A stretch of 64,000 nucleotides of DNA, from the NCBI GenBank assembly GCA_965197745.1, contig CBDANS010000007.1:1600001-1664000 (forward strand). The letters run 5' to 3'. This document shows, piece after piece, positions 1 through 15,487 of the stretch. The notes beneath the pieces were generated by a model. That model saw only the letters and a program-made list of their open reading frames with translations. It did no database searches and was not told where the DNA came from. A program made the translations under genes and the position numbers. The stretch comes from Opitutales bacterium (lineage in GTDB: Bacteria > Verrucomicrobiota > Verrucomicrobiia > Opitutales > PNEW01). Position 1 is the first letter of the stretch; each line of letters begins with the position of its first letter.

Positions 1-2
1 TC

Positions 3-626
3 TCTGACGATTTCTACAGTTTCCGTTGTGAGAATTCTTTTATCAGTATTCGCCATTGTGCAGGGACGATCAGCAAGGAACAAGATTCTGAAAATCATCA
101 CGTAACAAATGATTTGCCCCATGTTGTGCGCCCTCCCCAGCAGGCCAACGCGATGCGCTACCAGGTAAAAGGAAATAAAATATTTTCTGGTCTTACTCGC
201 GTGGTCTGGGAGCTTGAAGAGGTGAAAGCGGGACAAGGGGGAACCTCTTTTCTCAGCGGATCTCACAAAGCAAATTTCAACTATGGAGGACCTGATCCCT
301 ATCGACCGAATATCAGTGAGTCGCCGTGGGAAGAAAGCATGCGTGAGACTATGAAGGGTTATAGCTGTCCGGCCGGATCGGTTGTTATATTTACTGAAAG
401 TCTAATCCATGCAGCCAATGAATGGACCAATCCTGATAATCCCAGGTGCGCGGTATTCAATTGTTACAACTCCCTTTGGGCTCAATGGTATCTATTGAAT
501 CTGGATCATAAGATTATTGAAAAGATGCCGGTAAAGCGACGCTCCCTCTTTCGCGGGACTTGGAAATTGGGTGAATTAAATGGTAGCGGCAACTTCCATT
601 ATTCGGCAGACAACAGAAGTCTGTAA
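3..626 (+). CDS. PhyH-like Fe(II)/2OG dioxygenase, 5'-truncated by window edge
   Basis: Frame open from nt 3 to TAA 626; GGTSFLSGSHK and PAGSVVIFTESLIHA..R motifs typical of PhyH C-terminal half. Confidence 0.75.
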   Translation, partial: SDDFYSFRCENSFISIRHCAGTISKEQDSENHHVTNDLPHVVRPPQQANAMRYQVKGNKIFSGLTRVVWELEEVKAGQGGTSFLSGSHKANFNYGGPDPYRPNISESPWEESMRETMKGYSCPAGSVVIFTESLIHAANEWTNPDNPRCAVFNCYNSLWAQWYLLNLDHKIIEKMPVKRRSLFRGTWKLGELNGSGNFHYSADNRSL

Positions 627-718
627 TTGCAGACTTCAATGCTTATTCATTCTGTATTTATCTAGACATGGATTTACACAATTAAACTCGATGGACAATG
701 AAAACGGACCAGTGAGGG

Positions 719-1599
719 ATGACTAACATAGCGATGAATATCGTCGAGCCGTTCGATGATTGCAGCGATGTCTTACAGGATCGGGATCGGCTCCTTTCGC
801 GCGCCACTGACAGTGGTACCTCTACTTTCCACGTCTCCTCCCGGCCGACGAGATAATGCGGCTGCGCCACGAGCTTCTGCAGATCCACGAGCGGCACGGC
901 TTGATCAAAGAGTGTACCGATCTGAATGCAGCCATTCACAAGGAGGGAGTCTACGTCGACGTTGAATATGAGAAGAAACCCACACCTGAGGTCAGAACAT
1001 TTTACAACGAGGTTCTCGGTTTGCGCAGCTTCAATGCGTTCTTCCATCATCCGTCCGTTTTAAACGTGCTCCAAGTCCTGCTCGGTGAAGAGATTTTGGT
1101 TCACCCGCGCGTTATCTGTCATATCGTTTTTCCACGGCGCTTCGAGCACACGGTCGAACCCCATCAGGACTTTGCCCCCGTCCGCGGGACACAGAATACC
1201 TGGACGGTCTGGATTCCTCTCGGTGACTGCGATGCCAACCTCGGAGGTGTAGCCATCGCCCGTGGCTCGAACCAACTCGGTTTTCTCGACGCGGGCAAAC
1301 TCGCTACCGGCGAGGCGTTGGACGATAAAACGGTGTGGAACTGGAATCCCTTTACCTGCGGCGACGTGCTGATGTTTCACAGCCTGGCTGTCCACCAGGG
1401 ACGCGACAACATAACCGATGATACCATTCGGCTTGCGACCAGCGCCCGCTATCAACCGGTTACTGAACCCGTGGACGAACTCGCCCTCGAGCCGCAGAGA
1501 CGGTGGGCGGAGTGGGACGAACTCTACGCCGACTGGGACCCTGACGATCCGCTCAAGTACTACTGGCAGTCGCTGCCTCTCGATGTGAGAACCTATTGA
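719..1599 (+). pseudogene. PhyH family dioxygenase with a 1-nt frameshift near 813-817
   Basis: ORF 856-1599 has PHQD, TWTVWIPLGD, GDVLMFHSLAVHQG; upstream ATG 719/734 frame (MNIVEPFDDCSDVLQDRDRLLSRATDSG) joins YLYFPRLLPADEIM only after a frame change. Confidence 0.75.
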
Positions 1600-1739
1600 G
1601 AGTATTCCTCTCCCTCGCGGTATTCTGTTCGCGAAATCAAAAAACGAACGGCGCCTGTAATATTACAGATATTTTATTCATCATAAATGAAGAAATACCC
1701 ATACCACGCTTTGAATAAAGAACACGAGTTAAGGAATTG

Positions 1740-1812
1740 TGTATTTATCAGTTGTCCAGTTTGACAACATTATCTTACTTCTTGAATATGCAGAAATTTA
1801 AAATCACGTGTT
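1740..1812 (+). repeat. Module copy A of ~73-bp TTGACA...GTT repeat (attI/promoter-like)
   Basis: TGTATTT 1740, TTGACA 1761, GTT 1810; aligns with copies at 5086, 5314, 5887. Confidence 0.8.
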
Positions 1813-1900
1813 CCGTTGTGAATCCATGCATTGACGCCATGTTGCATATCGAGATGTTCGCGACTTGAGCGCACGGGCATCCACAGTGAGTATTTCGAAA

Positions 1901-2662
1901 ATGTTACAGATTGATCTTACCAACAAGGTGGCGGTTGTCACCGGCGGCAGCGGCGAGCTGGGCCGGGTCATGGCCAGGACACTAGCGGGCTGTGGCGCGG
2001 CAGTGGCGGTGCAGTACCTGCGCGGCCGGGATCGGGCCGAGGCCGTGTGCCGGGACATCGTTAACACCGGCGGTACGGCAATGACGGTGCAGGCTGAAGT
2101 GAGCGATCTTGACTCGGTCCATGCCATGCACGGCGCGGTGGCCGAGGAGCTCGGTCACACCGACATCATCGTGAACAATGCCGTGCATCAGTACGACTGG
2201 ACCTCGGTGCTCGAACAAGCGGCGATGGATTACGAAAGCCAGTTCCGCACCTGTGTCCTGCACAATGTATTCATGGCGAAGGCCTTCGTTCCGCACATGA
2301 TCGAGCGTCAGTGGGGGCGGGTCATCGGGATCAATACCGAGTGCACCATGCGGTGCACGCCCAGTCAGTCGGCCTACATCTCAGGCAAGGCTGGACAGGA
2401 TCGTGTCTTGCGGGTACTGGCCAAGGAAGTGGGGCAGCACGGTATCACAGTCAACCAGGTGGCGCCGGGCTGGACCATCAGCGACAAGTATCGCGAAACG
2501 CCGGCGGAGGACAAAGGGTACCGGGACCTCGTACCCATGGGGCGTCGCGGTGAGGACCAGGAGATCGCCAACGCCGTTGCCTTCCTGGCCTCCGATCTCG
2601 CCGCCTTTATCACCGGGCTGTACCTGCCTGTCTGCGGCGGCAACGTCATGCCCGGGATCTAA
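1901..2662 (+). CDS. Short-chain dehydrogenase/reductase (FabG-like)
   Basis: VTGGSGELG, IIVNNA, YISGK (YxxxK), ITVNQVAPG; ATG at 1901. Confidence 0.9.
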   Translation: MLQIDLTNKVAVVTGGSGELGRVMARTLAGCGAAVAVQYLRGRDRAEAVCRDIVNTGGTAMTVQAEVSDLDSVHAMHGAVAEELGHTDIIVNNAVHQYDWTSVLEQAAMDYESQFRTCVLHNVFMAKAFVPHMIERQWGRVIGINTECTMRCTPSQSAYISGKAGQDRVLRVLAKEVGQHGITVNQVAPGWTISDKYRETPAEDKGYRDLVPMGRRGEDQEIANAVAFLASDLAAFITGLYLPVCGGNVMPGI

Positions 2663-2675
2663 GAGGTATTTATCG

Positions 2676-3469
2676 ATGCAACAGCTGAACCAGGAACAAC
2701 TCGATCATTTTGAAGGTGAAGGCTATATCATCCTTCCCGGTTTCTTCGGTGAAGCTGAAGTGCAGGAGCTCCTCGAGACGATGAGAAGAATCCTGCCAAC
2801 AATCAAACGTGGGACGCCGGCGACAGGCCATGATCCCCGGACTCAAGAACCGGGTGATGACTTGAATCCGCTGAGAGTCAGTTATATCAACGACCTGTTC
2901 GAGTATGACCAGAGGCTTGACGACCATATGAGGAGTGAGCGTCTAGTTAGTGTTCTGATGGATCTTTTCGGTCCGGATATTACAGCCTTCCAATCCGCCA
3001 CAGTGATTAAAACCCCTCATCTCAATTTTGACTACCATGGCTGGCATCAGGATATGTATGATTATCAGCCACTATCAAATTTCAATAATGCAAATGCAAT
3101 GACTTATCTAGGGGATATGGGACCGGGCACCGGCAGTACTTCACTTGTCCCCGGAAGCCACCTTGTCGGAATCCTTCAGCCGGTGTGGGAGGATGTTGAG
3201 GGCTGGCCCAAAAAACAGAGACGGCTTGAAGGTTTCGAAAATACGAGGCGGATGTTGTTACGCCTCACTTCAGATCCGGTGACGTTCTTGTTTTTGATTC
3301 CAGACTGATGCATCGGGCTAACTCAAATGCTGACGACGCAACAAAAATCGGACTGGTAAACGTATTTCAATCTGCGGATTGTATTGACATAGATGGAAAG
3401 AACGATTTCCACGTCGCGAATCTACCGATTGCCAGTCAAGGTAAAGTCCCACAAGCGAAGAGAGCATGA
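2676..3469 (+). pseudogene. PhyH family dioxygenase, frameshift at ~3240
   Basis: FEGEGYIILPG, WHQD, LVPGSH; continuation KYEADVVTPHFRSGDVLVFDSRLMHRANSN in another frame after GAAAATAC, ending TGA 3469. Confidence 0.8.
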
Positions 3470-3540
3470 AGATGGTGGCAGAGAGGCACCCAGTTAGATA
3501 GTTACCGAACAGTTTCGCGACGACGTCAAGGATGTGGAAC

Positions 3541-3611
3541 GGGGTCAGGCATTGGAATCGGTTGGGTTACATCGAGAGCGAAACCTTTTCCCTCGATCCC
3601 TTGACCCCTTT
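3541..3611. repeat. REP-like inverted pair GGGGTCAGG...CCTTGACCCCTTT
   Basis: Inverted GGGGTCA/TGACCCC arms; same motif at ~5300, ~5863, 10934-10992, ~12570. Confidence 0.6.
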
Positions 3612-3619
3612 ATTAATCT

Positions 3620-3696
3620 TCTACGCCGACTGGGCTCCAGATGATCCGCTCAAGTACTACTGGCAATCGCTACCCCTGGATGTGCAAACGTATTGA
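3620..3696 (+). pseudogene. 77-bp 3' relic of a paralog of the 719-1599 PhyH gene
   Basis: Aligns with 1523-1599 (YADWAPDDPLKYYWQSLPLDVQTY*), 11 differences mostly at third codon positions. Confidence 0.85.
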
Positions 3697-3770
3697 AAGT
3701 TTTATTCGCGAACGCTCCCTTTTAGCTTCCCCCGGAATTACCAAAGATGTCATGCTAAGTGGAGAAAGCG

Positions 3771-4952
3771 ATGAAGCGCCCACACTACAATAAAGATCTG
3801 GATGTTCGCATAGTGGGAGTGGAAGATTTACCGCAAGCCCGTCAAGTGGCCGGACGCGCTTATGGTATGCACTGCGAAGATTGGTACAGGATGGAGACAA
3901 TCCTGGGTGGATTCGATAAGACCGGGACACTGGTTTGTGTCCTGAATTTTCAACCCGAATCGCTGTGGTGGGGTCACGCACAGATTCCTGCCAGGGCCAT
4001 CGAGTGTGTGGCTACCGATCCCAAGCATCAGGGGCGCGGACACACCGGAGGGCTCATGGTGCAGGCTATTCACATTCTACGAGAGCGGGGATGCTATATC
4101 TGTCCACTATGGCCTTCTTCCTTCAGGTGGTACGGTAAATTTGGTTGGGTCAGCCCCGCACCTGTCTTAGGGTTGAAAGTATGGCCAGATCTGATGCGTC
4201 AGACCAACCCAACTCCGGAGACAATACGCCAGGCAACATCCGATGATGTGATGGCCGTTATCCGGTTGTACACGGAAGGGGCACAGTTGCGAAACGGACA
4301 ATCCGTGCGTTCGGAGAGCTTTTGGCTAAAGGAGGAGATATTGCATCAGCTTTGGGTGCTGGAGGGTGAGAGCAGCGGCTTGGACTGTTGCGCCATAGTC
4401 AAACTAGAGGATATACGGCAAGCCCAGGGGAAAAGAGTCACCGTGCGAGAATTGCACGGAGCCACCTTTGCTTCCCAACTGCGCTTGGTCCTGTCCCTGG
4501 CTGAGCTGGACCGAGTCGTCGCCCTGAATCTCGAGCTGCCGGCTGGCAGTCTGTTTCTTCACGCCTTTCCCGAACGTTTTGACATTGCCGTCAACCATGC
4601 CATGGCACTGAGGGTGCTGCATGTGGAACGGGCCTTGGAGCATCTCAAGCCACCCGATGATTTGCGGGTACAGGTTTCCTTCGAGGTGACCGATTGGGTG
4701 ATCGATGCCGACAAGCCGTTGGCAGTGACGGCCCAGGTGGAAGAAGGAGATGTGGAGGTGGTCGATAAGGCGGGTAAGGATGCGCTACGTTGCGATATCT
4801 ATACCTTCACACAATTATTTGCAGGTGGCTTGACGGCGGCTGAGGCCCGGGGGTTGAGCCGCCTGGAGGGCGGCAATCCAGCGGTGGATGCAGCCTGTGA
4901 TGCCTTGCTGACTGGGCGCGTGCCGTATCGCTCATGGGTCGAAGCCGGTTAG
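3771..4952 (+). CDS. Eis-like GNAT acetyltransferase with C-terminal SCP2-like domain
   Basis: VATDPKHQGRG acetyl-CoA motif, LWPSSFRWYGKFGW, LRVLHVERALE, C-terminal CDIYTFTQLFAG. Confidence 0.8.
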   Translation: MKRPHYNKDLDVRIVGVEDLPQARQVAGRAYGMHCEDWYRMETILGGFDKTGTLVCVLNFQPESLWWGHAQIPARAIECVATDPKHQGRGHTGGLMVQAIHILRERGCYICPLWPSSFRWYGKFGWVSPAPVLGLKVWPDLMRQTNPTPETIRQATSDDVMAVIRLYTEGAQLRNGQSVRSESFWLKEEILHQLWVLEGESSGLDCCAIVKLEDIRQAQGKRVTVRELHGATFASQLRLVLSLAELDRVVALNLELPAGSLFLHAFPERFDIAVNHAMALRVLHVERALEHLKPPDDLRVQVSFEVTDWVIDADKPLAVTAQVEEGDVEVVDKAGKDALRCDIYTFTQLFAGGLTAAEARGLSRLEGGNPAVDAACDALLTGRVPYRSWVEAG

Positions 4953-5085
4953 AGCAAACATGTATATGACCGGATTGGGATTCACAATCGATAAAATCGG
5001 ATCGTAATCTCACGTAACTAATAGCACGACACAACTAACCAGTTGTTGCAATTGACTGACATCTTTTTATTCCTGCAGAAAATTT

Positions 5086-5158
5086 TGTATTCGCCAGTTG
5101 CCAATCTTGACAACATTATCCCCACACACGAATTTACTGAACTTTAGAATCAATTGTT
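5086..5158 (+). repeat. Module copy B of TTGACA...GTT repeat
   Basis: TTGACA 5107, GTT 5156. Confidence 0.85.
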
Positions 5159-5227
5159 GTAAGTAAAACAATCCAAATCGAAATCGGAATCGATCCCGAA
5201 AGCGATTTCGATCCCGATGAAAGAAAA

Positions 5228-5284
5228 TCACAACCAGACGGTGAAGGCAACGACTAACGGCGTGCTTCACTTTTAGCATTAATA
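5228..5284 (+). other. Degenerate integron attC site
   Basis: R'' TCACAAC 5228, L'' GTGAAG 5241 / L' CTTCAC 5265, R' position reads ATT instead of GTT at 5278. Confidence 0.55.
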
Positions 5285-5313
5285 GGTAAATTACTTAAAA
5301 GGGAGTCAGGCGG

Positions 5314-5386
5314 TGTATTTATTAGTTACCAACCTTGACAACATTGTCCCCATTCGCGAATTTACAGAACTTTAGAAACACTTGTT
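5314..5386 (+). repeat. Module copy C of TTGACA...GTT repeat
   Basis: TTGACA 5335, GTT 5384. Confidence 0.85.
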
Positions 5387-5396
5387 AGGAGGCGCT

Positions 5397-5822
5397 ATGG
5401 AGTTTCTGGCACTCTATTATGTGGTCGCCGATGCCATACTTATTACGCATGTACTGTTCGTAGTCTTTGTTGTGCTCGGCTTGATTCTTATCTTCGTAGG
5501 TAAGTTTCTATCATGGCATTGGGTCAGAAATCCGTGGTTCCGTGTCACACATTTATTAGGAATTGGCGTTGTCGTTTTGCAATCCTGGTTCGGTGTCATT
5601 TGCCCGCTGACGATCTGGGAAATGGATCTACGATCGAAAGCGGGGGAAACTGTCTACGAGGGTTACTTCATAACGCACTGGTTAAACGAACTCTTGTACT
5701 ATCAAGCCCCATCGTGGGTTTTTGTGGTTTGTTACACAGTCTTTGGTGGGCTGGCGTTGTCTAGCTGGTTTTTGGTGCGACCGCGTGTATTTTCGGCAGG
5801 GTTTCAGAGTGGTGCCTCCTAA
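5397..5822 (+). CDS. DUF2784-like membrane protein in an integron-type gene cassette
   Basis: H-x-LFVVFVVLG, FRVTHL, CPLTIWE, FITHW..LLYY pattern; flanked by GTTAGGAGGC (5384) and its reverse complement GCCTCCTAAC (5814). Confidence 0.8.
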   Translation: MEFLALYYVVADAILITHVLFVVFVVLGLILIFVGKFLSWHWVRNPWFRVTHLLGIGVVVLQSWFGVICPLTIWEMDLRSKAGETVYEGYFITHWLNELLYYQAPSWVFVVCYTVFGGLALSSWFLVRPRVFSAGFQSGAS

Positions 5823-5886
5823 CAAGTCAATCAACTTCGCGCATTCGGTGTTAAATTACAGAAGGGGTCAGGCTTGGCTAGAAAAC

Positions 5887-5959
5887 TGTATTTATAAATT
5901 ACCAACCTTGACAACATTATCCCCATTCTCGAATTTACAGAACTTTAAAATCACTTGTT
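5887..5959 (+). repeat. Module copy D of TTGACA...GTT repeat
   Basis: TTGACA 5908, GTT 5957. Confidence 0.85.
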
Positions 5960-6070
5960 GTATGCCCTATCCCAGACAGTTCGCAGGTCCGCTCGAAGCA
6001 ATGCTAGCTACACACGACGTGGCGTTTTTCTCGCAAACGGTGTTGAAGAGGGGAAAGGAGAAAAAAGTAA

Positions 6071-7087
6071 GTGACCGCTAAGTACCGTGCATTAATAATT
6101 GGACCGGGTGGGGCCGGCACGGCGGTGATGAATGCGATGAAGGAAGACGGCCGGGGCGAGCCGGTGGCCTTCGTGGAAACGCGGAAGGAACGCATCGAGC
6201 AATTGAAAGAGAAGTATCCCGACGCCATCATTGGCACCGATTTTTTGAAAGTACTGCAGATCTGCAAGCCGGATGTCGTCGTCGCTGCCGGACCGGACTT
6301 CCTGCACGGCCCGCAGTGCCTGGCCGCACTGGAGGCGGGCTGCCACGTGCTCATTGAAAAACCCATGGCGACCAGCGTGGAAGACGCAAGAATGCTTCTG
6401 GAGGCCGAGGAACGCACCGGCAAGATCATCATGGTCGACTACACCATGCGGTATTCACATCCCTGGGGCACGATGATGCAGGCGGCCAGGGAAGGGCGGA
6501 TCGGTAAGATCTTTTATCTGGCGGGCTTCTACATCCACGACATGTGGAACTGGTACGACGAGAAGGGCAAGAATTGTACCCCGTGGCGGGTCGATAAAGA
6601 TAACCCGCAGAACATTCTGTTCGGTGGCGGGTGCCACGGGTTGGACATGGTTCTATATGTTATGGAAAATGACCCGGTCACCGAGGTTTATTGTTGCGGT
6701 AATCGTTTGTCAGGCTCCAACATGCCCATCGAGGACTGCTTCCTGGTCTCGATGAAGTTCGAGAGCGGCGCCGTCGGCAAGGTATTTGTCACAGCCGGCT
6801 GCAATCGTGGCGATATGGGAAATATGTTCGAGGCTTACGGTACTGACGGGACGCTCGTCGACGGCAGACTGCTTCGGCGTACGTCCGAGCCCGAGCTGTT
6901 GCCGCAGTCCAGCAACATTCAAAAAGGCCACGGCTGGAACCTGACCGTCCGCGACTTCCTGGACGTGTTGGATGGAAAGCGGGAGAACTGGATGAACTCA
7001 ACCTTCGGCGCCCGGAACGTGTCGATCTGCGATGCCGCCATGAAATCACTGAGGACAGGCAACGTCGAGACGGTGACGTGGTTCTGA
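6071..7087 (+). CDS. Gfo/Idh/MocA family oxidoreductase
   Basis: IIGPGGAG, HVLIEKPMA, GCHGLD. Confidence 0.9.
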   Translation: MTAKYRALIIGPGGAGTAVMNAMKEDGRGEPVAFVETRKERIEQLKEKYPDAIIGTDFLKVLQICKPDVVVAAGPDFLHGPQCLAALEAGCHVLIEKPMATSVEDARMLLEAEERTGKIIMVDYTMRYSHPWGTMMQAAREGRIGKIFYLAGFYIHDMWNWYDEKGKNCTPWRVDKDNPQNILFGGGCHGLDMVLYVMENDPVTEVYCCGNRLSGSNMPIEDCFLVSMKFESGAVGKVFVTAGCNRGDMGNMFEAYGTDGTLVDGRLLRRTSEPELLPQSSNIQKGHGWNLTVRDFLDVLDGKRENWMNSTFGARNVSICDAAMKSLRTGNVETVTWF

Positions 7088-7123
7088 GTGGACTTGACAC
7101 GCGCAATTCAGGGAGAATGTTAT

Positions 7124-8176
7124 ATGGCCATTGGTGTAGGAGTCATCGGTATGAATCCGACCAACATGGGATCAACCATGACCCTGTTGAAGGATGTGCC
7201 AGACCTGAATTTTGAGCTACGGGGCATCTGCGCTCAACGGGCAGAGGTCCTGGAAGCGTACGCCAAACAGATCGGCGTCGACTTTTGGACGACGGACTTT
7301 CGGGAATTAGTGAGCCGCGGCGACATCGATGTGGTTGCCGTATACTCCCCCGATCACCTCCACGCCGAACACTGTCTGGCCGCGGTTGAAGCGGGCAAGC
7401 ATGTCCTCTGCACCAAACCGATGGTGACAAACCTGGACGACGCCAAAAAGCTTGTGGGTGCGGTTAATAGAAAAGGGGTCAAATTTCTGGTCGGTCAGTC
7501 GATGCGTTTCGATTCCCAGTTCCTGACGATGCGTCGCCATTTCGACGATGGCGACCTGGGTGAGATCATGGTCGCCGAGGCCTACTACGTCCATGATATG
7601 CGCGAGGTTTATGGTTTCACGCCCTGGCGTTTAAGCGTCCCCCAGGACATGATGTTCGGCGGAGTCGTTCATCCGGTGGACATTTTACGCTGTTTCCTGG
7701 GCGACGTGGAGGAAGTGCACGCCTACGGCGCAAAAGGAAAACTCACCCCTGAATTCCCATTACCGAACAATTTCTTCCTCAATCTGAAGTTCAGCAGCGG
7801 GCAAATCGGTCGTGCAATGGGACTCTATGACGTTGTGCATCCGCCCATGCCCATGATGCAGGTATTGCTCTACGGCGCCAAAGGAACGATGATCGGAGAC
7901 TTCACCGATAATAAAGGCGGGCAAGTCAAGCTCATGTCGGATAAAATGTCAGCGAGAGAACCGCTGCAGATGACATGTCCTCCGGAAACAGATACCAGCG
8001 TTTACGGTCATGGCCAATCTGTGATCCGCTACATGCGACATCTTCAGGAATGTATTGAGGGTGATCTAGAACCAACGCCTAATGTGGTCGAAGGGGCTAA
8101 GTCGGTGGCCGTTGGAGTAGCAGCATGGGAATCGATTCAGACGGGCAGTCCGGTGAAGGTGTTCAACGAATTTTGA
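7124..8176 (+). CDS. Gfo/Idh/MocA family oxidoreductase
   Basis: GVGVIG, SPDHLHAEH, GKHVLCTKPM, HPVD; ATG 7124 after GGAG. Confidence 0.9.
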   Translation: MAIGVGVIGMNPTNMGSTMTLLKDVPDLNFELRGICAQRAEVLEAYAKQIGVDFWTTDFRELVSRGDIDVVAVYSPDHLHAEHCLAAVEAGKHVLCTKPMVTNLDDAKKLVGAVNRKGVKFLVGQSMRFDSQFLTMRRHFDDGDLGEIMVAEAYYVHDMREVYGFTPWRLSVPQDMMFGGVVHPVDILRCFLGDVEEVHAYGAKGKLTPEFPLPNNFFLNLKFSSGQIGRAMGLYDVVHPPMPMMQVLLYGAKGTMIGDFTDNKGGQVKLMSDKMSAREPLQMTCPPETDTSVYGHGQSVIRYMRHLQECIEGDLEPTPNVVEGAKSVAVGVAAWESIQTGSPVKVFNEF

Positions 8177-8185
8177 GGGGATCGT

Positions 8186-8734
8186 ATGGAAGTCAAGCAA
8201 CTCAAACCGCCGCAACTTAAAATGCGCTGCAATCGACTCGAAGCATTGCCACCGGTCAAACTGCCGCCTGGCTACAGTCTGTGCACTCTCGTGGAACGGG
8301 ATGTAGCGGATTGGATAGATGCTTTGAACGCGACAGGTCAGTTGGGTGAATGGGATGATGATGCGGCTCGAAAGTGGCTGGAAGGGGAACGTCACGTCAT
8401 CAAGGAAGGCGTATTTATCATCACCTTCGCAGGCCGGCCAGTGGCCACCGCCAGCACCGTGGATCCTGCGCCCGGTGCGGTAAGGTTTGAGTTGGGTTGG
8501 GTTTCCGTCTCCCCTGACCACCAGGCAAAAGGATTGGGTTATCAGGTATCTCTGGCGGTCATGCACTACACCTATAAATTGGGATACTCAGAAACATACC
8601 TGTTCACCGACGACTGGCGCCTGCCTGCAGTTAAGACCTATTTGAATTTGGGTTTCGAACCCGAAATCATCCACGAGAGCCACCCCGCGAGATGGAAGGC
8701 TGTGTATGAAACGCTCGGTGTAAATGAAAACTAA
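8186..8734 (+). CDS. GNAT family N-acetyltransferase
   Basis: LGWVSVSPDHQAKGLG, TDDWRLPAVKTYLNLGF. Confidence 0.85.
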   Translation: MEVKQLKPPQLKMRCNRLEALPPVKLPPGYSLCTLVERDVADWIDALNATGQLGEWDDDAARKWLEGERHVIKEGVFIITFAGRPVATASTVDPAPGAVRFELGWVSVSPDHQAKGLGYQVSLAVMHYTYKLGYSETYLFTDDWRLPAVKTYLNLGFEPEIIHESHPARWKAVYETLGVNEN

Positions 8735-9503
8735 TACTCCTTCAAGCGGCTTTTCACCCGATCAATACCTACAGGTAGGTTACACCGGCCCGGTGCCACT
8801 TCTAAATAACGAAGAGGCCGCCGCCGGCCGCAAGGCATACTTCACAGCGATTGGTCAATCCGAGGTGACGCAGGGCCCTACAGATGAACGACCGGGTGGA
8901 TTCAACCTGCGCTATCGTTGGGCCTATGAGCTGGCTACGCACCAGAAAATCCTTGACCATGCAGAACGGATCCTGGGCCCGAACATTGTGCTTTGGGCCA
9001 TGGTCTTCTGGTACAAGGAGCCCCATAACTGTAAATACATCCCCTGGCATCAGGACGCGACCTACTGGCCCATGGAACCGAGGATCAATCTAACGGCATG
9101 GGTGGCCCTGGGACCGACCTTTCGAGAAAACGGTTGCTTGCGATTGATTCCGGGTTCGCACAGGCAGTGGCTGGACGAGCAGCACCAGCGTCTCGATCGG
9201 GACAGCTCCTTCGGCCATGGGCTAGCTGCTGACCGGGTGGATGAATCCAGCGCACTTGACCTCGAAATGGCCTCGGGAGAAGTCGTCTTTTTTAACGAGG
9301 CCATCCAACACGGCTCAGACGCCAACTCGAGTGATATGCCTCGACTGGCCTATGCCCTGCGTTTCACAACGCCCGAGGTTAAATTTGATCCGGACGGGTT
9401 GAAGGAAACAGGGTTGGTCTACCTAGCGAAAACGATGTTGGTCCGCGGCGAAGACCGTTTCCACTACAATGACTCCTTGAAAGTGGAACCGCCGACGACT
9501 TAA
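8724..9503 (+). CDS. PhyH family dioxygenase (intact)
   Basis: PWHQDATYW, TAWVAL, NGCLRLIPGSH, HGSDANSSDMPR. Confidence 0.9.
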   Translation: MKTNTPSSGFSPDQYLQVGYTGPVPLLNNEEAAAGRKAYFTAIGQSEVTQGPTDERPGGFNLRYRWAYELATHQKILDHAERILGPNIVLWAMVFWYKEPHNCKYIPWHQDATYWPMEPRINLTAWVALGPTFRENGCLRLIPGSHRQWLDEQHQRLDRDSSFGHGLAADRVDESSALDLEMASGEVVFFNEAIQHGSDANSSDMPRLAYALRFTTPEVKFDPDGLKETGLVYLAKTMLVRGEDRFHYNDSLKVEPPTT

Positions 9504-9540
9504 GCTGCCTGTCATCTTTTGGCTACCGTCGAACGGACAA

Positions 9541-10883
9541 TCACATCCAATCATTAGCCCGTGATACCACCCGCCAGCACCCATTACCCTCATAACTCGC
9601 AATCTCCGACAATGGTACCGCCGGTATGCCACCCCCCCCCCACGGGGCACATTACCGGGTGGCAGTAGCGGCAGGTTGTACTTGTCCCACCAGGGAAGTT
9701 CATCGACAACATGGCCCACCACAGGCCGCTGGCCAAGATTCCACTCATCGAAGGGGTCATTCCCAGGTGCGTGTTTGTCCAACAAGAATTCATTCGAATC
9801 TATCATCCATAGGGTGGTCACCTCGCGTTGTCCATCGGCGGGATCATCATTGGTGTTGGTTGGAAAGTTGAAGACGCCATCCATGTTGCAATGAACCCGC
9901 GGCACTCCAGCGCAAATGACTGCGCTGCTTGACCTTGTTGAAGTCCTGCACGGCAGCCATGCGAATGCGACCGCTTTCATGGATGCCTGCTGAGTGTACC
10001 ACCCAGCCGTGGCAGAAAATGACATCTCCTGCCTTGCCGGTAAACTCGATGGGCTGCACCTTGACCATGATCTCATCCATCGCGGTCTTCGACGATTCAG
10101 TTGCCACCCAGTTCAATGCCTGTGCGGAGGTCGGATAAAGCGACTGCGGTGAGGTTGGGAAAATCGTAAAACCGCCACCCCGTGGCTCAACATCATTGAG
10201 GTAGGTCACCACCATCATCTCAGTCATATTGTTGTCCGTGTGGGGTCCCAGTTTGGAACCGGATCCGAGTCGTTGCGCGGAAAAACCGAATAGATTCCTC
10301 GATTACGGTGCGGTCGCTTGACCGGACCACCCATCAATGCCTCGGCCATATGGAGCACATTAGGATGGGCTGATGTGGCAGCTACAAAAGCCGGGTCGTG
10401 GCCGATGCCATGCCAGCGCCACACATCATTGGCGATATCACGTGTCAGCTTATGGGGCAATTGGCCAACGCGCTCTCCGATATCGGCACCAGCGCGCGGC
10501 TCATCCGGAGTTGGCCAAGGGCTACTTCCCATCCAGTTTTTAGCAAGCCCCCAGCGATTATCCTTCGGCCAATGCCTGCCGGGAGAGACCCAGGTACCCG
10601 GATCATCCCGTTGCATCTTTGCCGCCAGCACTGGGGGTTGTTGCCACCACAAGTCGATGATGGAAGATAATGCTTCGGATGGAATCAGTCCGCGCTTGAT
10701 CACATAACCAAACTCGCGAAACTGGTCGATCTCTTCGCTTGTCAAACCCAGTTTGTCAGCACCTGGCGGATCGAGATCCGGTGTGGTCGGACGTGGCGAA
10801 TGCACTGCGGGCTGTTTGGTGTTAAAACTGCTTTCCGCATCCGTCGGTTCGGGGGCTCTATCCTGGTTGTGTGTGGCGGACAT
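9541..10883 (-). pseudogene. PhyH-like dioxygenase with C-terminal extension, three frameshifts (~10258, ~9900, C10 tract 9632-9641)
   Basis: QFREFGYVIKRG; GPHTD motif only after first shift; GKAGDVIFCHGWVVHSAG; last segment GIPAVPLSEIASYEGNGCWRVVSRANDWM* ends 9541. Confidence 0.7.
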
Positions 10884-10933
10884 ACTTACCTTTCCTCTGT
10901 TATAAGTTCAGCGAATTGCAAAAGATTGAAAAA

Positions 10934-10992
10934 GGGGTCAGGCCCTGCATTTTGGCATTTATAATTATTTGCCAGTTTGCAGGGCCTGACCC
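10934..10992. repeat. REP-like palindrome GGGGTCAGGCCCTGCA...TGCAGGGCCTGACCC
   Basis: 15-bp perfect arms plus inner TGGCA/TGCCA; interrupted at right end by IS. Confidence 0.8.
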
Positions 10993-12565
10993 GAATGGCG
11001 TTAAGATAAGGGTGGTTTAGGATGATAAAAGCCTTTGTTTTTTCGTGAAGCAGAGACGGTCATCATGGCTCGTGGATGAGTCAATCGTTGGAAAGGTATA
11101 GGTCTACGTTTGAGGACTCTTGGTTCGTATCGGAAGGGACGTAGGGGGACCGATTCGAGGGCAATGAGGTGTATCATCTCGTCAATGACAGATCGTTGGG
11201 CTCTGGGATTAAACCGGGTGGCCGCGAGCGCACTTTGATATTGGCGGAGGGTGTCAACAGCCCCCTTGAAGCTTAGCCGGGAGAGGTCGCGGTGGAAGGC
11301 ACTGGCAGCTTGCTGCAAAAGAGCGCGGATGAGAGATTGTAGGCGATGGCAAACATCGCAATCTCTTTGCGCACGAGAGCGACCGAGCGAGAGCGCAGGA
11401 TCTCCATCCCCATGGTGGTTTTGATGTGGCGAAAGTAAAGCTCCACTGCCCAGCGCCGATAGTATAATTCTCCGAGATCGTGGTGGGAGTATTGGTGAGG
11501 ATCGCTCAAGGTAGTCACGAGGTCTACGCTATGGGCGCGGAAACCTTTGATGAAAATGAAAATCTTCACCAGCCGTACGGGGATCTCATCAGGGATTTGC
11601 CGCCACTGCTCGCGACTGAAGCCGAAGACATTTTGCGGCTTCTTCCACATGATCAGCCGGTCATACCTACCCAAGGACCTGCCCTGACGAAAGTCGCTTC
11701 TTCGTTGCTGATGCAAACGCATGACCGCTTCAGCACCGCGGCCTTTAAGCAGGGCAATATTGAGGTAAGAGCAAAATCCCCGGTCGGCAAGGACCACATC
11801 ACCCTTTTGAAAAAATCCGATCATGCCCCGCAACAGCACACTGTCATGATGCCTTAGTGAGGACTCCATCCAGTGTAAAAGCGCCCCACTGGCTAAAGAA
11901 AAACAGCCCACCAGCTTCACCACCGGAAAGCCGCAGCCGCTTCGTTGCTGCGAAGGCTGTGGGTAACACCTCTGCAAGCACGGCGTATCGGCGGTGGCGA
12001 TACCCGTGCCGTCGACCACTTTTACCTCGTGACCTTTCCACCGTTGATCGTCGGTCACTCTCCCGGCCACCTCTTCACTGATCGCTTCATGGATCCCGTG
12101 CAGGTCTTGCACCAACAGCCGTTGCCTCGCCTGACAGTAGGCCGAGGCCGTTCCTTTAGCCAACTTCAGCCCCTTCATGCTGCAATAGCTCTGGAGCTTG
12201 CGCACCACTTCCCGGCAGGCAGTCCGTGGTGAGAGCACTTGGAACAAAAATGCCCAGAAGGTCACGTTTTGGCTGAACAATCTCCGCCGGCTGTTAGCCC
12301 CTCGAGGCTTCCGGTGTAAATACTTTTGCGGCACCCACTGCCCGAAGATATCCGATAGCTCGGAAAGACTTGACCGCCGTATTTCTACCAGCTTACCCTC
12401 CATCTGTGCAAGGGCTGTTCGGGGAGCACGACCGAACAGGACCTGATTAAATCCTGGAAAATAACGAGTTAAGTTTTGTTTTTGCATGCTCGTTAGGGTA
12501 GCTCTCCAACGGTCCCTGTACAAGCATCTATTGCACTCATTCTATCCCTTATCTTAACGCCATTC
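10993..12565 (-). mobile_element. IS4-family insertion sequence (1573 bp)
   Basis: Perfect 20-bp terminal inverted repeats GAATGGCGTTAAGATAAGGG (10993-11012, 12546-12565) enclosing a transposase. Confidence 0.9.
11001..12487 (-). pseudogene. IS4-family DDE transposase, frameshifted near 11330
   Basis: VVDGT, LADRGF, Y-x2-RW-x2-E-x2-F-x3-K (YYRRWAVELYFRHIK); C-terminus (LSFKG..EPRVLKRRP) in ORF 11001-11318. Confidence 0.85.
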
Positions 12566-12602
12566 CACTCTGACCCCTTTTGAAATCACTGGAGGAATAT
12601 TT

Positions 12603-13592
12603 ATGAAAGCTATTGTTTATCACATATATGGTTCACCCGATGTTCTTCAATTCAAAGAGGTAGAAAAACCTACTCCCAAGGACAATGAAGTCTTGATAAA
12701 AGTTCATGCCACAACAGTAAATTGAACTGACACTGCAACAATTAGAGCGAAACCTTTTATTATTGGTAGATTGATGACAGGTTTATTCAAACCAAATAAT
12801 CCAATTCCTGGAACCGAATTTGCTGGAAAAATTGAAGCTGTTGGAAAAAACATATCGTCTTATAAAGTAGGCGATAAGGTTTTTGGATTTGATGATAGCG
12901 GATCACGGGCTCATGCAGAGTACATGACGATATTAGAAGACAAAGTAGTAACAATACCTGAAAACATAACATATGAACAGGCCGCAGCGAGTTCTGAAGG
13001 CGCACATTATGCGTATATTTTTATCAAAAAAGTAAATATAAAAAGTGGGCAAAAAGTTCTTGTTAATGGTGCAACAGGAGCGATTGGTTCGGCAGCAGTT
13101 CAACTTCTAAAACATTTTGATGTTAAGGTTACGGCAACATGTAACACGAAGAATATAGAATTAGTGAAATCATTAGGTGCTGATAAAGTAATTGATTATA
13201 CAACAGAAGGTTTTACAAAAGATGAAGAAAAATATAACTTTGTGTTTGATGCTGTTGGAAAAAGTTCATTTTTTAAATGCACACAATTACTACAACCAGG
13301 AGGAGTTTATTTTTCAACGGACTTAGGTTATATGGGTCAGAATATTTTCTTACCACTCATAACAGCGATTATAAAACCCCTGATTGGCAGCAAAAAAACC
13401 GCATCTCCAAATTTTACAGATGTTAGGGAAAGTCTACTTTTAATCCAGAAGCTTATTGAAGTTGGAAAATTTAAAACAGTAATAGATAGAAAATATCCGT
13501 TAGAACAAATTGTCGAGGCGTATAAGTATGTTGAGACGGGGCAGAAGGTGGGGAATGTAGTAATAACATTGGAACATAATAACAAAACCTAG
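12603..13592 (+). pseudogene. NAD(P)-dependent MDR/quinone-reductase-like alcohol dehydrogenase with in-frame TGA at 12723
   Basis: [42 protein letters not shown] in frame with ORF 12771-13592 (VLVNGATGAIG); strongly AT-rich. Confidence 0.85.
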
Positions 13593-13610
13593 ATCAAAAG
13601 GAGGCAAAAG

Positions 13611-13976
13611 ATGGCACAGGTAAGATATATAGTAAATGACGTAGAAGATGCCGTTGCCTTTTATGTCTCAAAGCTTGGTTTTGAACTCGAACAGCAATAC
13701 GGTACGGCGTTCGCAATCGTGGTCCATGGCGACTTGACGCTGTGGCTTGCGGGCCCAAAAGCATCAGCGTCCAAGCCGATGCCAGATGGCGCTATACCCA
13801 GCCCGGGAGGCTGGTCCAGGTTCGCCTTGATAGTCGACGATTTAGAATCCCTCGTCTCAAAGCTCAAGGACGATGGTGTAATATTCAGAAACGATATTGT
13901 AGAGGGGCCGGGGGGCAAACAGATTCTCTGCAAAGATCCTTCTGGTAATGTAGTTGAGCTCTTTCAGCCAGCGTAG
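13611..13976 (+). CDS. VOC/glyoxalase family protein
   Basis: VRYIVNDVEDAVAFY..LGF, DPSGNVVELFQP; AGGAGG RBS. Confidence 0.9.
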   Translation: MAQVRYIVNDVEDAVAFYVSKLGFELEQQYGTAFAIVVHGDLTLWLAGPKASASKPMPDGAIPSPGGWSRFALIVDDLESLVSKLKDDGVIFRNDIVEGPGGKQILCKDPSGNVVELFQPA

Positions 13977-13983
13977 TAGTAAC

Positions 13984-14080
13984 GCCTAACCAATCGCTCA
14001 AACCTGACCGCTAATAAGCTGGACTTGGTTGCAACTTTTAATTGGTTACCTCAAGTAAAAAACCTGTCAGGTTAAGTCGT
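13984..14080 (+). other. Degenerate attC site downstream of VOC gene
   Basis: R'' GCCTAAC 13984; CTCAAACCTGAC (13997) pairs with GTCAGGTTAAG (14066); inner ACTTG/CAAGT; R' eroded. Confidence 0.6.
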
Positions 14081-14254: not shown

Positions 14255-15487
14255 TTATTTCCCTCCCTCGCGTTTCGCTTTTGCGACCTGCTGTGCTCGC
14301 AATCGCAGTGACTGCAGGTGAATAAAACCGGTAGCATCATCAGGGTTATAATTACTGGCCACACCTTCCATCGAAGCTATGTCCGGGTCGTATAGTGATT
14401 GTGATGATTTGCGTCCAACCGTGATGATGTTTCCTTTATATAATTTTAAACGCACCGTACCGATAACTGTTTTCTGGCTTTTATTGATAAAGGCCTGCAG
14501 TGCTTCGCGTTCAGGTGAGTACCAAAAACCATTATAGATAAGTTCGGCATACTTGGGAATCAGACCATCGCGTAAATGCATGAGCTCCCGGTCCATGGTC
14601 AAACTTTCTACCTGGCGATGCGCGTGCATAAGAATGGTCCCACCCGGTGTCTCATAAACACCACGGCTTTTCATGCCGACAAAACGATTTTCCACAATGT
14701 CGGTACGACCGATACCATGTTTACCTCCGAGTGCATTCAAGGTCTTAAGAACGGCTGCTGGATTTAAGTTATTTCCGTTTACCGCGATACAATCCCCTTT
14801 CTCATATTCGAGTTCGATATGCTCGGGTTCATCAGGGGCGTCCTCCGGGGCGACCGTCAGTTTAAACATGCTTTTGTTGCAGGGTATGGTAGGGTCAAAC
14901 ATCGGATCTTCAAGGATACCCGCCTCGTATGAAATATGCAGGAGGTTGCGGTCCATGGAGTAGGGTTTCGAAGCGGTGGCCTCGACATCAATGCCATGTT
15001 CCTGGCAATAGGTAATCAATTCGCTTCGACCGGGAAATGTTTCGCGAAAGGCGGCTATTCGCCAGGGAGCGATGATCTCGAGATCGGGTGCGAGGGATGC
15101 ATAGGTGAGTTCAAAGCGGCATTGGTCATTGCCTTTACCCGTCGCTCCATGGGCGAGGGTTGTCGCCTTTTCTTTTCGAGCAACATCAATCTGCGCTTTG
15201 GCAATGAGAGGGCGGGCAATGGATGTACCCAGAAAGTACTGGCCCTCGTAAATAGCGTTTCCCCGCAACATGGGGTAGATAAAATCACGCGCGAACTCCT
15301 CGATAAGATCGACGGTATAATGTGCAGCAGCGCCGGTGGATTCCGCTTTTTCAGAGAGCCCCTCCAGTTCCTCTTCCTGGCCAATATTGGCGGCAAAAGT
15401 AACGACCTCTGCCCGGTATTGTTCTTTAATCCATTTAAGGATAACGGAAGTGTCCAATCCTCCCGAGTATGCGATAACGACTTTCAT
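14255..15487 (-). CDS. argG: Argininosuccinate synthase
   Basis: [28 protein letters not shown]. Confidence 0.97.

Follow-up and report, generated by a model that had tools for sequence, protein, structure and literature searches.

A 73-nt unit that recurs in the genome of an Opitutales bacterium is best read as a conserved, non-hairpin junction element of the integron-type cassette arrays found in one Opitutales family. We lean towards the view that it represents an attI-like junction with a promoter reading outwards, and that recombination from unit to unit has multiplied and shuffled it. Promoter-like and present in about 20 copies in this marine bacterium, it stops precisely at the joints of integron-type cassettes, and the genome lacks an integron integrase; it therefore looks like a multiplied cassette docking site, an arrangement that does not appear to have been described for integrons.

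A repeated unit found in one Opitutales family

The window analysed here is a stretch of 64,000 nucleotides from the source Opitutales genome (92% complete; G000), which was compared with the other three genomes of the same family (G001, G002 and G003). It contains four direct 73-nt copies of the unit at 1740-1812 (A), 5086-5158 (B), 5314-5386 (C) and 5887-5959 (D), in full agreement with the initial annotation, and their identities to copy C, taken as the reference, are 74%, 82%, 100% and 92%, respectively. TTGACA starts at positions 1761, 5107, 5335 and 5908 and the G of the terminal GTT lies at 1810, 5156, 5384 and 5957; therefore, the two are 49 nt apart in all four window copies, as had been claimed, and among copies outside the window this spacing varies by 1-2 nt. 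A 19-nt core pattern tolerating up to 3 mismatches was matched 3 times in the window (0.01 expected; 0 of 100 shuffles reached 3), copy A being missed because it is too diverged. The four copies described at the outset proved to be part of a larger set, since the genome-wide count in G000 is 21 units arranged in about six clusters; G001 carries 18 co-oriented units within 45 kb and G002 six within 30 kb. Six metagenome contigs also bear units. Pattern scans of a genome and a viral collection found whole units in a single Opitutales family only: among 30 genome-collection loci, whole units were found at 8, all on the chromosome of one Opitutales MAG, 7 more gave partial matches restricted to the 3' motif used for the search (from model position 31 onwards), and the remaining 15 had no match to the unit HMM; at 3 viral loci the match was limited to the 21-nt pattern.

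Unit A has a long form at 1645-1812 (+ strand), delimited by an alignment of 10 long forms and by a G001 match to window positions 1645-1813 at 88%. It opens with a small hairpin, CTGTAATATTACAG, and a stretch rich in T; a conserved spacer of about 110 nt leads to TTGACA (1761-1766), N17 and GAATAT, and its right end, ...CACGTGTT, is at 1812. Also on the + strand are unit B (5086-5158), the extended form of unit C (5287-5386), which reads TAAATTAC...GGGAGTCAGGC... and then the core at 5314-5386, and the extended form of unit D (5851-5959, core 5887-5959). The left edges of the units are ragged and the right edge is sharp to one base. Folded as single strands, units A to D gave z scores of -0.02, +1.18, +1.14 and +1.18 against shuffles, i.e. 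no hairpin, unlike an attC, which is an imperfect palindrome folding as a single strand with inverse core and core at its ends; this sustains the earlier statement that the unit is not an attC; it is by fold that they resemble the double-stranded, hairpin-free attI, recombination at them being putative. A 25-aa peptide encoded by the upstream part of the long form was also considered and rejected because, by eye, half of the 10 long forms in the alignment (5) have no start codon for it. Rfam, at the gathering threshold, returned one tRNA and nothing else in the window.

The boundary at GTT

IntI cuts between G and TT, and the first six bases of a cassette come from its own attC. The bases following GTT in the window copies are different in each case (CCGT, GTAA, AGGA and GTAT). 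We derived a conservation profile from 27 of the 45 units of G000, G001 and G002, namely those without the leader of a four-helix-bundle (4HB) gene cassette behind them. Information content ranges from 0.96 to 2.0 bits over positions -28 to -1, with the exception of -23 (0.48), falls across the joint from 1.77 bits at -1 to 0.35 at +1 and does not exceed 0.72 over +1 to +30; conservation drops from about 1.5 to about 0.2 bits per position exactly after ...CTTGTT. The profile bears out the sharp boundary between G and TT proposed by the initial annotation, whose wording that similarity largely stops after GTT holds for these 27 units but not for the five G000 units with a 4HB cassette behind them, in which similarity runs far past GTT.

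Comparisons between genomes locate breaks at the same place. Homology between G000 and G001 ends with the GTT of a unit at window position 1812 (G001 island 3892) and at position 10916 of L046rc (G001 island 37446), and it also breaks at the left edge of a unit at L046rc 9318; some between-genome gene boundaries lie near a start codon rather than at GTT. Moreover, two 242-nt units, one from G001 (locus L024) and one from G002, are 92.6% identical in an alignment that ends exactly at GTT, and the cassettes behind them are different, a comparison of the kind that the initial annotation had proposed for strains. The 27-unit profile and this pair show at the 3' end of the unit what would be expected of an attI, a crossover point between G and TT with unrelated cassettes beyond it.

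Cassettes behind the units

Integron-type cassettes with a folding attC start exactly at the TT of GTT in G002, G001 and G000. At locus L023 of G002 the unit end ...CACTTG is directly followed by TTAGAAATA, a 141-aa ORF, TTTCTAAC and an attC (z -2.7 and -2.5) which ends in ...AAACG before TTATACCGC; next come a second ORF and GCGGTATAAC with another attC (bottom strand z -2.7). The L024 cassette of G001 has an attC with a bottom-strand z of -3.2, and in G000 an attC at L046:15701-15763 (bottom strand z -3.4) stands behind a unit-headed 82-aa ORF. One attC of L023 is the 57-nt site L023:1015-1071. It is in this subset (the two cassettes of L023, L024 and L046:15701-15763; bottom-strand z -2.5 to -3.4) that the first bases of attC cassettes pair with the cassettes' own inverse core, as they would behind an attI. 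The motif CTAACAAG, which comprises the inverse core and a spacer, was also read, by visual inspection, in the attC sites that accompany a genuine IntI gene of the same order.

In the window, the cassette behind C (5385-5850, + strand) carries a DUF2784 gene at 5397-5822 (1e-28). The exact reverse complement reported for its two ends is real and even longer than described, 13/13 nt instead of 10 (5381-5393 versus 5814-5826); the second arm holds the stop codon TAA and is an inverse-core-type sequence, CCTAACAAG, with an own-end match of 11/12 in the looser test described below. No folding attC was found behind this cassette (5805-5886, z +1.7 and +1.5). Unit B is followed by a gutted 4HB gene cassette (5159-5286, + strand), whose leader, GTAAGTAAAACAATCC, also precedes intact 4HB genes (PF05635, 1e-20) elsewhere. 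It contains a hexamer-repeat hairpin at about 5177-5212 and the inverse-core-like ATCACAAC at 5227-5234. This element had been presented as an ORF-less unit ending in an attC: it is indeed ORF-less, and its attC-like tail forms only a weak hairpin (z -1.9 and -0.8). Stem-flanked cassettes of this kind, encoding the 4HB 23S rRNA IVS protein (PF05635) between complementary hexamer-repeat arms, stand behind copy B and four other G000 units, intact or gutted. G000 has 14 PF05635 matches at about a dozen loci, and about ten further loci are without a unit; therefore, the unit is not part of that cassette family in general.

An exact reverse complement of the unit end of at least 10 nt is present within 4 kb downstream in just 2 of the 21 units, and a looser complementarity test was therefore needed. 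In 16 G000 cassettes the complementarity between own start and own end averaged 7.69, versus 6.79 for mismatched pairs (permutation p = 0.00015); the repeat on 13 cassettes from relatives gave 6.92 versus 6.78 (p = 0.30), with one of the 13 being clear. The stop codon lies inside TAACAA in 4/16 cassettes versus 16/3174 ORFs genome-wide (Fisher 2e-6).

The attC sites of G000 are few and mostly decayed. None of three heuristic scans revealed an enrichment of attC in its clusters or genome: a strict scan combining ends and fold retrieved 1 site, a fold scan for AAC...GTT 6 sites, mostly inside genes, and a genome-wide scan for RYYYAAC...GTTRRRY with L-box pairing 2 sites versus 7 in the reversed-sequence control. 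Several attC-like tails picked by eye fold no better than shuffles (z -0.1, -0.3 and -1.4). Counts of core-type 8-mers showed no genome-wide excess; an apparent excess of GAGAGCGTTT was discarded as due to an 18-copy IS plus a separate 9-copy repeat.

Predicted promoter and downstream genes

The unit contains a predicted outward-reading promoter of the sigma-70 type, made up of TTGACA, a 17-nt spacer and a weak -10 box, GAATAT or GAATTT, whose second and sixth positions are A and T. A consensus sigma-70 scan called 0 of the 4 window units because the -10 box scores 3/6, the -35 being perfect. TTGAC is found 37-54 nt upstream of 14/44 tRNA genes versus about 3% expected, and the -10 boxes there are similarly weak; judged by sequence, the TTGACA of the unit matches the -35 type that this organism would use upstream of tRNA genes. 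The perfect -35 and poor -10 of the initial annotation were accordingly confirmed, with a -35 as at tRNA genes.

All 16 G000 units that lack a 4HB cassette behind them are followed by a same-strand ORF that starts 0-138 nt after GTT. These ORFs encode proteins with no relation to one another: SDR, DUF2784, Gfo/Idh/MocA, HIT-cupin, HAD, methyltransferase, sulfatase, amidohydrolase, PhyH and GDSL. Behind A (1901-3469, + strand) lie a short-chain dehydrogenase gene at 1901-2662 (Pfam adh_short 1e-34) and a PhyH-family dioxygenase gene at 2676-3469 (PhyH 5e-15); the frame of the latter is broken near 3237, and contigs of two runs have an extra A behind 3237. The end of this pair shows a partial inverse-core match only (7/9, by eye). 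Behind the pair that A would drive, positions 3620-3703 (+ strand) repeat the 3' end of a PhyH-like gene (856-1599), sharing 85% identity with 1523-1606. The operon behind D (6071-9503, + strand) encodes two Gfo/Idh/MocA oxidoreductases, a GNAT acetyltransferase and a PhyH dioxygenase; its homology to G001 begins at 6077 and not at GTT, and an inverse core looked for at its end is absent. Contigs of four runs compared with window positions 1-12000 are short and break at repeats, and one X5 contig skips 1607-1880.

Search for an integron integrase

An attI is normally single and adjoins intI, and expression from the one Pc falls with distance from it. No integron integrase above the TIGR02249 cut-off was detected in G000, G001 (one contig, 94%), G002 or G003; the best scores, 80-84 bits versus a cut-off of 265, belong to Xer-like ORFs of 312-319 aa. 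Searches by tblastn with three Opitutales IntI proteins recovered no IntI fragments in G000 or in the 21 unit-bearing loci of relatives, the hits being Xer-like genes only, far from units. Of the 201 genomes of the order that were sampled, 40 have an IntI above the same cut-off, and the unit HMM had no match (E <= 10) in the 1.5-kb flanks of six intI genes from Opitutales. The absence of a local intI, already pointed out from the window, extends to the four family genomes, and the proposed check for a copy beside an intI found no case in any of them.

Discussion

The evidence above assigns two putative roles to the unit. As a candidate outward promoter, with about 20 conserved nt after the -10 box, it would let every cassette or operon behind it be transcribed independently, and in the long form the promoter would be preceded by a small terminator-like hairpin. 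Secondly, its last bases, ...CACTTG before TT, would be the crossover point where cassettes were joined on: the cassettes begin at TT, their first bases pair with an inverse core located at the 3' end of the same cassette, and several end in a folding attC with its own ...G/TT. By analogy with established integron biology we infer that an integrase made these joints. Given this junction position and geometry the unit would act, in position and geometry, like an attI with a built-in Pc. The initial annotation appears largely right about an attI-like junction, in part supported by sequence, with site function, binding and cutting by an integrase and service in trans all putative; where it had independent landing pads, the alternating layout of unit, cassette, unit and cassette needs unit-by-unit recombination, which is possible by plain homologous recombination. 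We propose that blocks of unit plus cassette may have been multiplied and shuffled by recombination between units, homologous or site-specific, with the integrase either lost from the family or acting from outside.

The unit resembles the attI/Pc platform in being a double-stranded, non-hairpin site with the joint between G and TT at its 3' end, followed by attC cassettes in the orientation of the predicted outward promoter and by different cassettes behind near-identical copies. It differs from that platform in lacking an adjoining intI in the four family genomes, in being present 21 times per genome (G000) or 18 times in 45 kb (G001) instead of once, in alternating with cassettes and in having no similarity to the regions beside the six Opitutales intI genes. 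Such a number of copies, often alternating with cassettes, is not expected from repeated insertion at a single attI. Integron-type cassettes in genomes without IntI, with IS elements nearby, also recall the CALINs, half of which are in genomes without IntI in the survey by Cury et al. 2016 (PMC4889954); as presented there CALINs are defined by attC alone, whereas here a recurrent non-attC unit with a predicted promoter is involved. It is tempting to speculate on a bolder version of our reading, for which we would claim a limited chance: an integron platform reduced to dispersed, self-multiplying attI/Pc pads, each putatively still gaining and losing attC cassettes, served by an integrase from outside (brought by a plasmid, by a phage or by a nearby Opitutales that has IntI) or by some recombinase other than IntI, and giving each captured gene its own promoter, so that its expression would not hinge on how far it lies from one shared Pc.

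We hold it unlikely that the unit is a portable promoter/terminator module and nothing else, spread by homologous recombination and duplication, with its right end marking where the promoter or leader functionally ends; were TAGAAT the -10 box, this could be the transcription start; cassettes would stand behind some copies because the islands are old integron arrays. Its promoter-like anatomy and orientation, and the hairpin plus T-run upstream of the promoter in the long form, would fit such a module, and similar promoters reused before unrelated genes have been described, at least in the cases given in PMC3575422. Several signs of recombination point the same way, namely hybrid units with left part and core from different subtypes, orthologous positions carrying different unit subtypes, the Campbell-like duplication of a gene 3' end around the A-driven block and a 5' fragment of the Gfo gene which, both in G001 and in one metagenome contig, is fused before the SDR gene, as does the negative repeat of the complementarity test in relatives (p = 0.30). 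However, a module of this kind leaves unexplained why the bases directly behind GTT, which are specific to each cassette, pair with that cassette's inverse core and why textbook attC cassettes start exactly at the unit's TT in three genomes, and homologous recombination gives no reason for a right edge sharp to one base together with ragged left edges.

We judge it improbable that the unit is itself an ORF-less promoter cassette, or a promoter joined to a degenerate attC, moving as cassettes do. The extended form of D does have the boundaries of a cassette, since TTAAATTAC at its left end comes immediately after a G and its right end, ...CTTG, is followed by TT, and the extended form of C, directly behind the 4HB cassette tail, starts one base off this left pattern; however, D is the only one with a left G/TT joint and the left boundaries of the other subtypes are without any. 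The ORF-less cassettes of PMC8876359 have a classical attC at their 3' end, whereas the units do not fold, nor do they show G/TT on both sides. Cassette-borne promoters and ORF-less promoter cassettes (PMC8876359) are similar to the unit in that a promoter inside the array drives cassettes far from Pc, and the reused promoter segment of the qacE 5'UTR (PMC8876359) likewise places a short promoter segment before different cassettes; unlike the unit, the elements described in that source are inside cassette boundaries or have a classical attC. The unit lies outside the cassette, as the inverse core of the cassette itself finds its pairing partner in the bases that follow GTT.

Smaller still is the likelihood of a resident strong promoter offering a favoured secondary insertion site of the attG type, with inserted cassettes kept because they are expressed. 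As reported for attG (bioRxiv 10.1101/2022.09.11.507474), IntI inserts cassettes at double-stranded genomic G-W-T sites other than att sites, cut between G and (A/T)T, and these are expressed near resident promoters; its authors even suggest that attI may derive from attG-type hot spots. The attG sites of that report are, in contrast, numerous, short, diverse and mutually unrelated, whereas the unit is one conserved family in which the same 60-185-nt context occurs 21 times with every joint at the same base, and the multiplication of the unit would not be accounted for. Finally, it is very remote that the unit is a terminus, with a promoter reading outwards, of an insertion sequence or of a miniature transposable element: IS4-family elements occur in 5 of the 7 G000 stretches surveyed, window 1-14000 and loci L042-L047 (the window, L042 with two copies, L043, L045 and L046), but they are not adjacent to units, and the units have ragged left ends, no terminal inverted repeat and no partner end, and are always co-oriented with the gene behind them rather than found in either orientation.

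If the attI-like reading is true, many promoter-bearing joints without an integrase would constitute a different solution to cassette expression and exchange. The family would then become a test case for the origin of attI and for the persistence and movement of cassettes in integrase-less genomes such as those with CALINs, and the unit would be of use in annotating accessory islands in Verrucomicrobia that are marine and host-associated.

A family of direct repeats in the Opitutales

Copies A to D (window positions 1740-1812, 5086-5158, 5314-5386 and 5887-5959) were recovered by a repeat search as one family of 73-nt direct repeats, 74-92% identical to the reference copy at 5314-5386, with a 19-nt core found three times in the window versus 0.01 expected. 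The core consists of TTGACA, N17, GAATAT or GAATTT and then ..CAGAACTTTAGAATCACTTGTT; as proposed in the initial annotation, the start of TTGACA and the G of GTT are 49 nt apart in all four copies, and the bases past GTT vary. The source genome G000 (4.45 Mb, 7 contigs, 92% complete), in which the window spans C7:1600001-1664000, carries 16 copies by BLAST and 21 by profile, one of them weak: 19 on contig C7 and two, opposite to each other, on contig C6, in about six clusters that on C7 are each confined to a single strand. Among the 41 genomes of the order searched, the unit was found in all three others of the same family (10, 5 and 1 BLAST matches), with 18 co-oriented units within 45 kb in G001 and six within 30 kb in G002, and two of the 37 genomes from other families gave marginal 25-26-nt BLAST matches only (E about 0.007). 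A degenerate 21-nt pattern retrieved 30 loci from the genome collection, whole units being present only in eight, all on one Opitutales MAG chromosome; 45 loci from the metagenome collection, six with whole units (seven units); and three from the viral collection, with the pattern alone. At C7:43767-44260 (L043:3767-4260, minus strand) a further unit, missed by the profile, seems to be split: its left end GGGGTCAAGCTGTGTATTTATAG and its right end TTTAGGATCACTTGTT can be recognised on either side of some 170 nt of AT-rich inserted sequence.

The unit as a putative promoter

In all 16 G000 units lacking a four-helix-bundle (4HB, PF05635) leader behind them, a same-strand ORF begins 0-138 nt past GTT, and the products of the ORFs behind units are unrelated enzymes. 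The unit had been credited with a perfect -35 but a poor -10 box; both descriptions hold (the -10 matches at only 3 of 6 positions), but such weakness is normal before tRNA genes here. TTGAC occurs 37-54 nt upstream of 14 of the 44 G000 tRNA genes, versus about 3% expected, and the -10 boxes of these promoters are as weak as the unit's, so that a perfect -35 with a 3-of-6 -10 is normal for this organism. A generic sigma-70 scan, which called none of the four window units, speaks against a promoter; sequence and position suggest that the unit may act as one. That it is a portable promoter and nothing more would recall the reuse of similar promoters before unrelated genes, a topic within PMC3575422; we regard this reading as unlikely, though the best of the alternatives, and it has to be weighed against the ends of the cassettes that follow the units.

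Integron-type cassette geometry

Cassettes at the units display integron-type geometry. Similarity had been said to stop largely at GTT; this is true of the 27 of 45 units without a 4HB leader, on which information content was computed and in which it drops from 1.77 bits at the final T of GTT to 0.35 bits at the next base, staying at or below 0.72 bits over 30 nt, but not of five of the 21 G000 units, in which similarity persists because a 4HB cassette comes behind. Copy B had been described as followed by an ORF-less unit ending in an attC: an ORF is absent, but the following sequence (GTAAGTAAAACAATCCAAATCGAAATCGG...) is the leader of the 4HB gene cassette, identifying a gutted form of it, and the hairpin is formed by two complementary hexamer-repeat arms. 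Intact cassettes with this leader match PF05635 at E 1e-20 and 6e-16, and gutted ones are found again in G001, in G002 and in one metagenome contig. Elsewhere in G000, about ten more loci match PF05635 but lack a unit.

Behind copy C the inverted repeat is longer than the 10 nt first claimed: the 13 nt CTTGTTAGGAGGC (5381-5393) return as their reverse complement at 5814-5826, a stretch that includes the DUF2784 stop codon. The same start/end pattern, with different cassette-specific bases, is found behind other units. Over 16 G000 cassettes, the 12-mer made of GTT plus 9 scored on average 7.69 against its own gene end versus 6.79 against the ends of other cassettes (permutation p = 0.00015), with scores of at least 9 in 4/16 own and 5/240 mismatched pairs, and the stop codon lies inside TAACAA in 4/16 cassettes versus 16/3174 ORFs of at least 150 aa (Fisher 2e-6). 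The complementarity was not reproduced among another 13 cassettes, chosen automatically from relatives (6.92 versus 6.78, p = 0.30); only one of them was clear, that at locus L023 of G002, which is decisive in kind. There the unit ends ...GAATCACTTG/TTAGAAATA (the slash marking the G/TT joint) and is followed by a 141-aa ORF, by TTTCTAACAAG plus a 57-nt hairpin site ending ...AAACG/TTATACCGC (z -2.7 and -2.5), by a second ORF, the start and end (GCGGTATAAC) of which are perfectly complementary, and by an 87-nt hairpin site ending ...GAACG/TTAGGGC (bottom strand z -2.7). The unit at L024 of G001 is 92.6% identical to this one over 242 nt, the alignment stopping at exactly GTT, and precedes a different cassette, in which a cold-shock-protein-like ORF (by eye) is accompanied by a separate hairpin site (bottom strand z -3.2); as the left flanks are non-homologous, the two loci need not be orthologous. 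In G000 itself, an 82-aa ORF headed by a unit is followed by a site of 63 nt at L046:15701-15763 (bottom strand z -3.4). The opening motif of these sites, CTAACAAG, matches by eye attC sites beside a true IntI gene elsewhere in the order. Left of the 242-nt unit, at L023:1690-1850 (minus strand), the 3' end of an ORF (...GGRPRKL...AIARKLKLNYNTVYSWIQKYS) resembles by eye a C-terminal helix-turn-helix as in serine recombinases or resolvases; its sharing with G001 (L024:1330-1400, plus strand) is limited to the last ~20 codons.

Cassette promoters and ORF-less cassettes are covered in sections 2.3 and 2.4.3 of PMC8876359, and the unit itself might be an ORF-less promoter cassette or a decayed attC hybrid. 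We find this improbable; the four window units, reported to show no hairpin, indeed fold as single strands no better than shuffles (z -0.02 to +1.18).

Absence of an integron integrase

CALINs and integrons in Verrucomicrobia are among the subjects of PMC4889954. In agreement with the absence of a local intI noted initially, searches with TIGR02249 detected no integron integrase in G000 or its three relatives, where the best scores (80-84 bits versus a cut-off of 265) belong to Xer-like ORFs; across the order, 40 of the 201 genomes sampled have a match above cut-off. The top G000 match (80 and 63 bits) is a 312-aa Xer-type tyrosine recombinase ORF at window 54417-55217 (plus strand). With three Opitutales IntI proteins, tblastn found no IntI fragments in G000 or in 21 unit-bearing loci of relatives, and the unit profile had no matches near six Opitutales intI genes. 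Three heuristic scans gave no attC enrichment in G000, and several attC-like tails do not fold. The cassette behind copy C has no folding attC, the operon behind D has no inverse core at its end, and the gene pair behind A ends with only a 7-of-9 inverse-core match (by eye). Together these results argue against an integron of the classical type. In a single limited literature check for multi-copy attI, neither 'orphan attI' nor 'multiple attI' appeared among the matches listed.

At L132 (G187:C100:112001-129500), a true Opitutales integron, an intI-adjacent stretch is repeated 13 kb away (reverse-complement 1212-1381 and 14359-14757); by eye, the distant copy adjoins what seems to be the beginning (5') of another intI, a truncated one, and the platform beside the intact intI is disrupted by an IS. 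Platform ends can therefore be duplicated in this order, though integrase remnants accompany them. A G000 region 0.49 Mb upstream of the window includes two units (C7:1108111 and 1110158) together with copies of a separate repeat (...TCGAGCGCTGAAGAGTGATGAGAGCGTTTTGATGGGCTGGGGTATA..., about nine copies: C7:1107064, C7:1107880 and seven more, e.g. C7:1099334 and C6:529835), some preceded, at a distance of about 35 nt, by an inverse core of the CCTAAC type; this may be G000's own short attC type.

Rearrangement around the units

Window 1-12000 corresponds to about 27 kb of G001 in which additional units, gutted 4HB cassettes and genes are interspersed. Homology blocks stop at the GTT end of units (window 1812, L046 reverse-complement 10916) or begin at a unit's left edge (L046 reverse-complement 9318), and the starts of others are close to start codons (window 1873 and 6077). 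One block, consisting of the DUF2784 cassette and a unit, separates the gutted 4HB cassette from the Gfo operon in G000 but is lacking from G001 and a metagenome contig. The units might also be attG-type hot spots at resident promoters (attG sites are treated in bioRxiv 10.1101/2022.09.11.507474), which appears quite improbable. The left side of units is ragged, beginning immediately ahead of the -35 box after a TGACCCC motif, about 45 nt further upstream with a GGGGTCAGGC motif, or fused to a 4HB cassette tail; a long form of ~185 nt, represented by copy A, four copies in G001 and two from metagenomes, opens with a short hairpin (CTGTAATAYTACAG) and a T-run. That a unit with such a left side is an IS end is hardly credible.

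The motif AAAGGGGTCAGGC or its complement GCCTGACCCCTTT occurs in either orientation shortly upstream of many G000 units (window 5296-5311 and 5864-5874) and also beside IS ends, and forms a perfect palindrome at window 10935-10992. An IS4-family element (416-aa DDE transposase ORF and overlapping 105-aa ORF) occupies window 11001-12523 (minus strand), and identical ORF pairs lie in the unit-bearing G000 stretches L042 (two copies), L043, L045 and L046. A 44-nt piece of the Gfo/Idh/MocA gene 5' end (window 6077-6120) sits between unit and SDR gene at L037:11683-11726 (G001) and L087:5023-5260 (metagenome contig), a joint away from GTT. The 3' end of the PhyH-like gene 856-1599 is duplicated over 84 nt (window 1523-1606 and 3620-3703, 85% identical), the second copy lying behind the unit-A-driven SDR-PhyH pair, with the fragment also in G001; this resembles what a Campbell-type insertion through homologous recombination would leave behind. 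In the unit-A pair, the PhyH gene (2676-3469) has a frameshift near 3237 but is intact in G001 (275 aa); contigs of two sequencing runs have an extra A behind 3237, the difference being due either to variation between strains or to misassembly of the A-run.

The unit-cassette-unit layouts require units to recombine with one another, for which homologous recombination could suffice; what calls for an integrase-type event is the initial attachment of attC cassette to unit at G/TT. The geometry is observed; from it and from the sequence we infer recombination at the units and promoter activity, and we lean towards the unit being an attI-like joint that carries its own outward promoter, which would have multiplied in an Opitutales family devoid of integron integrase.
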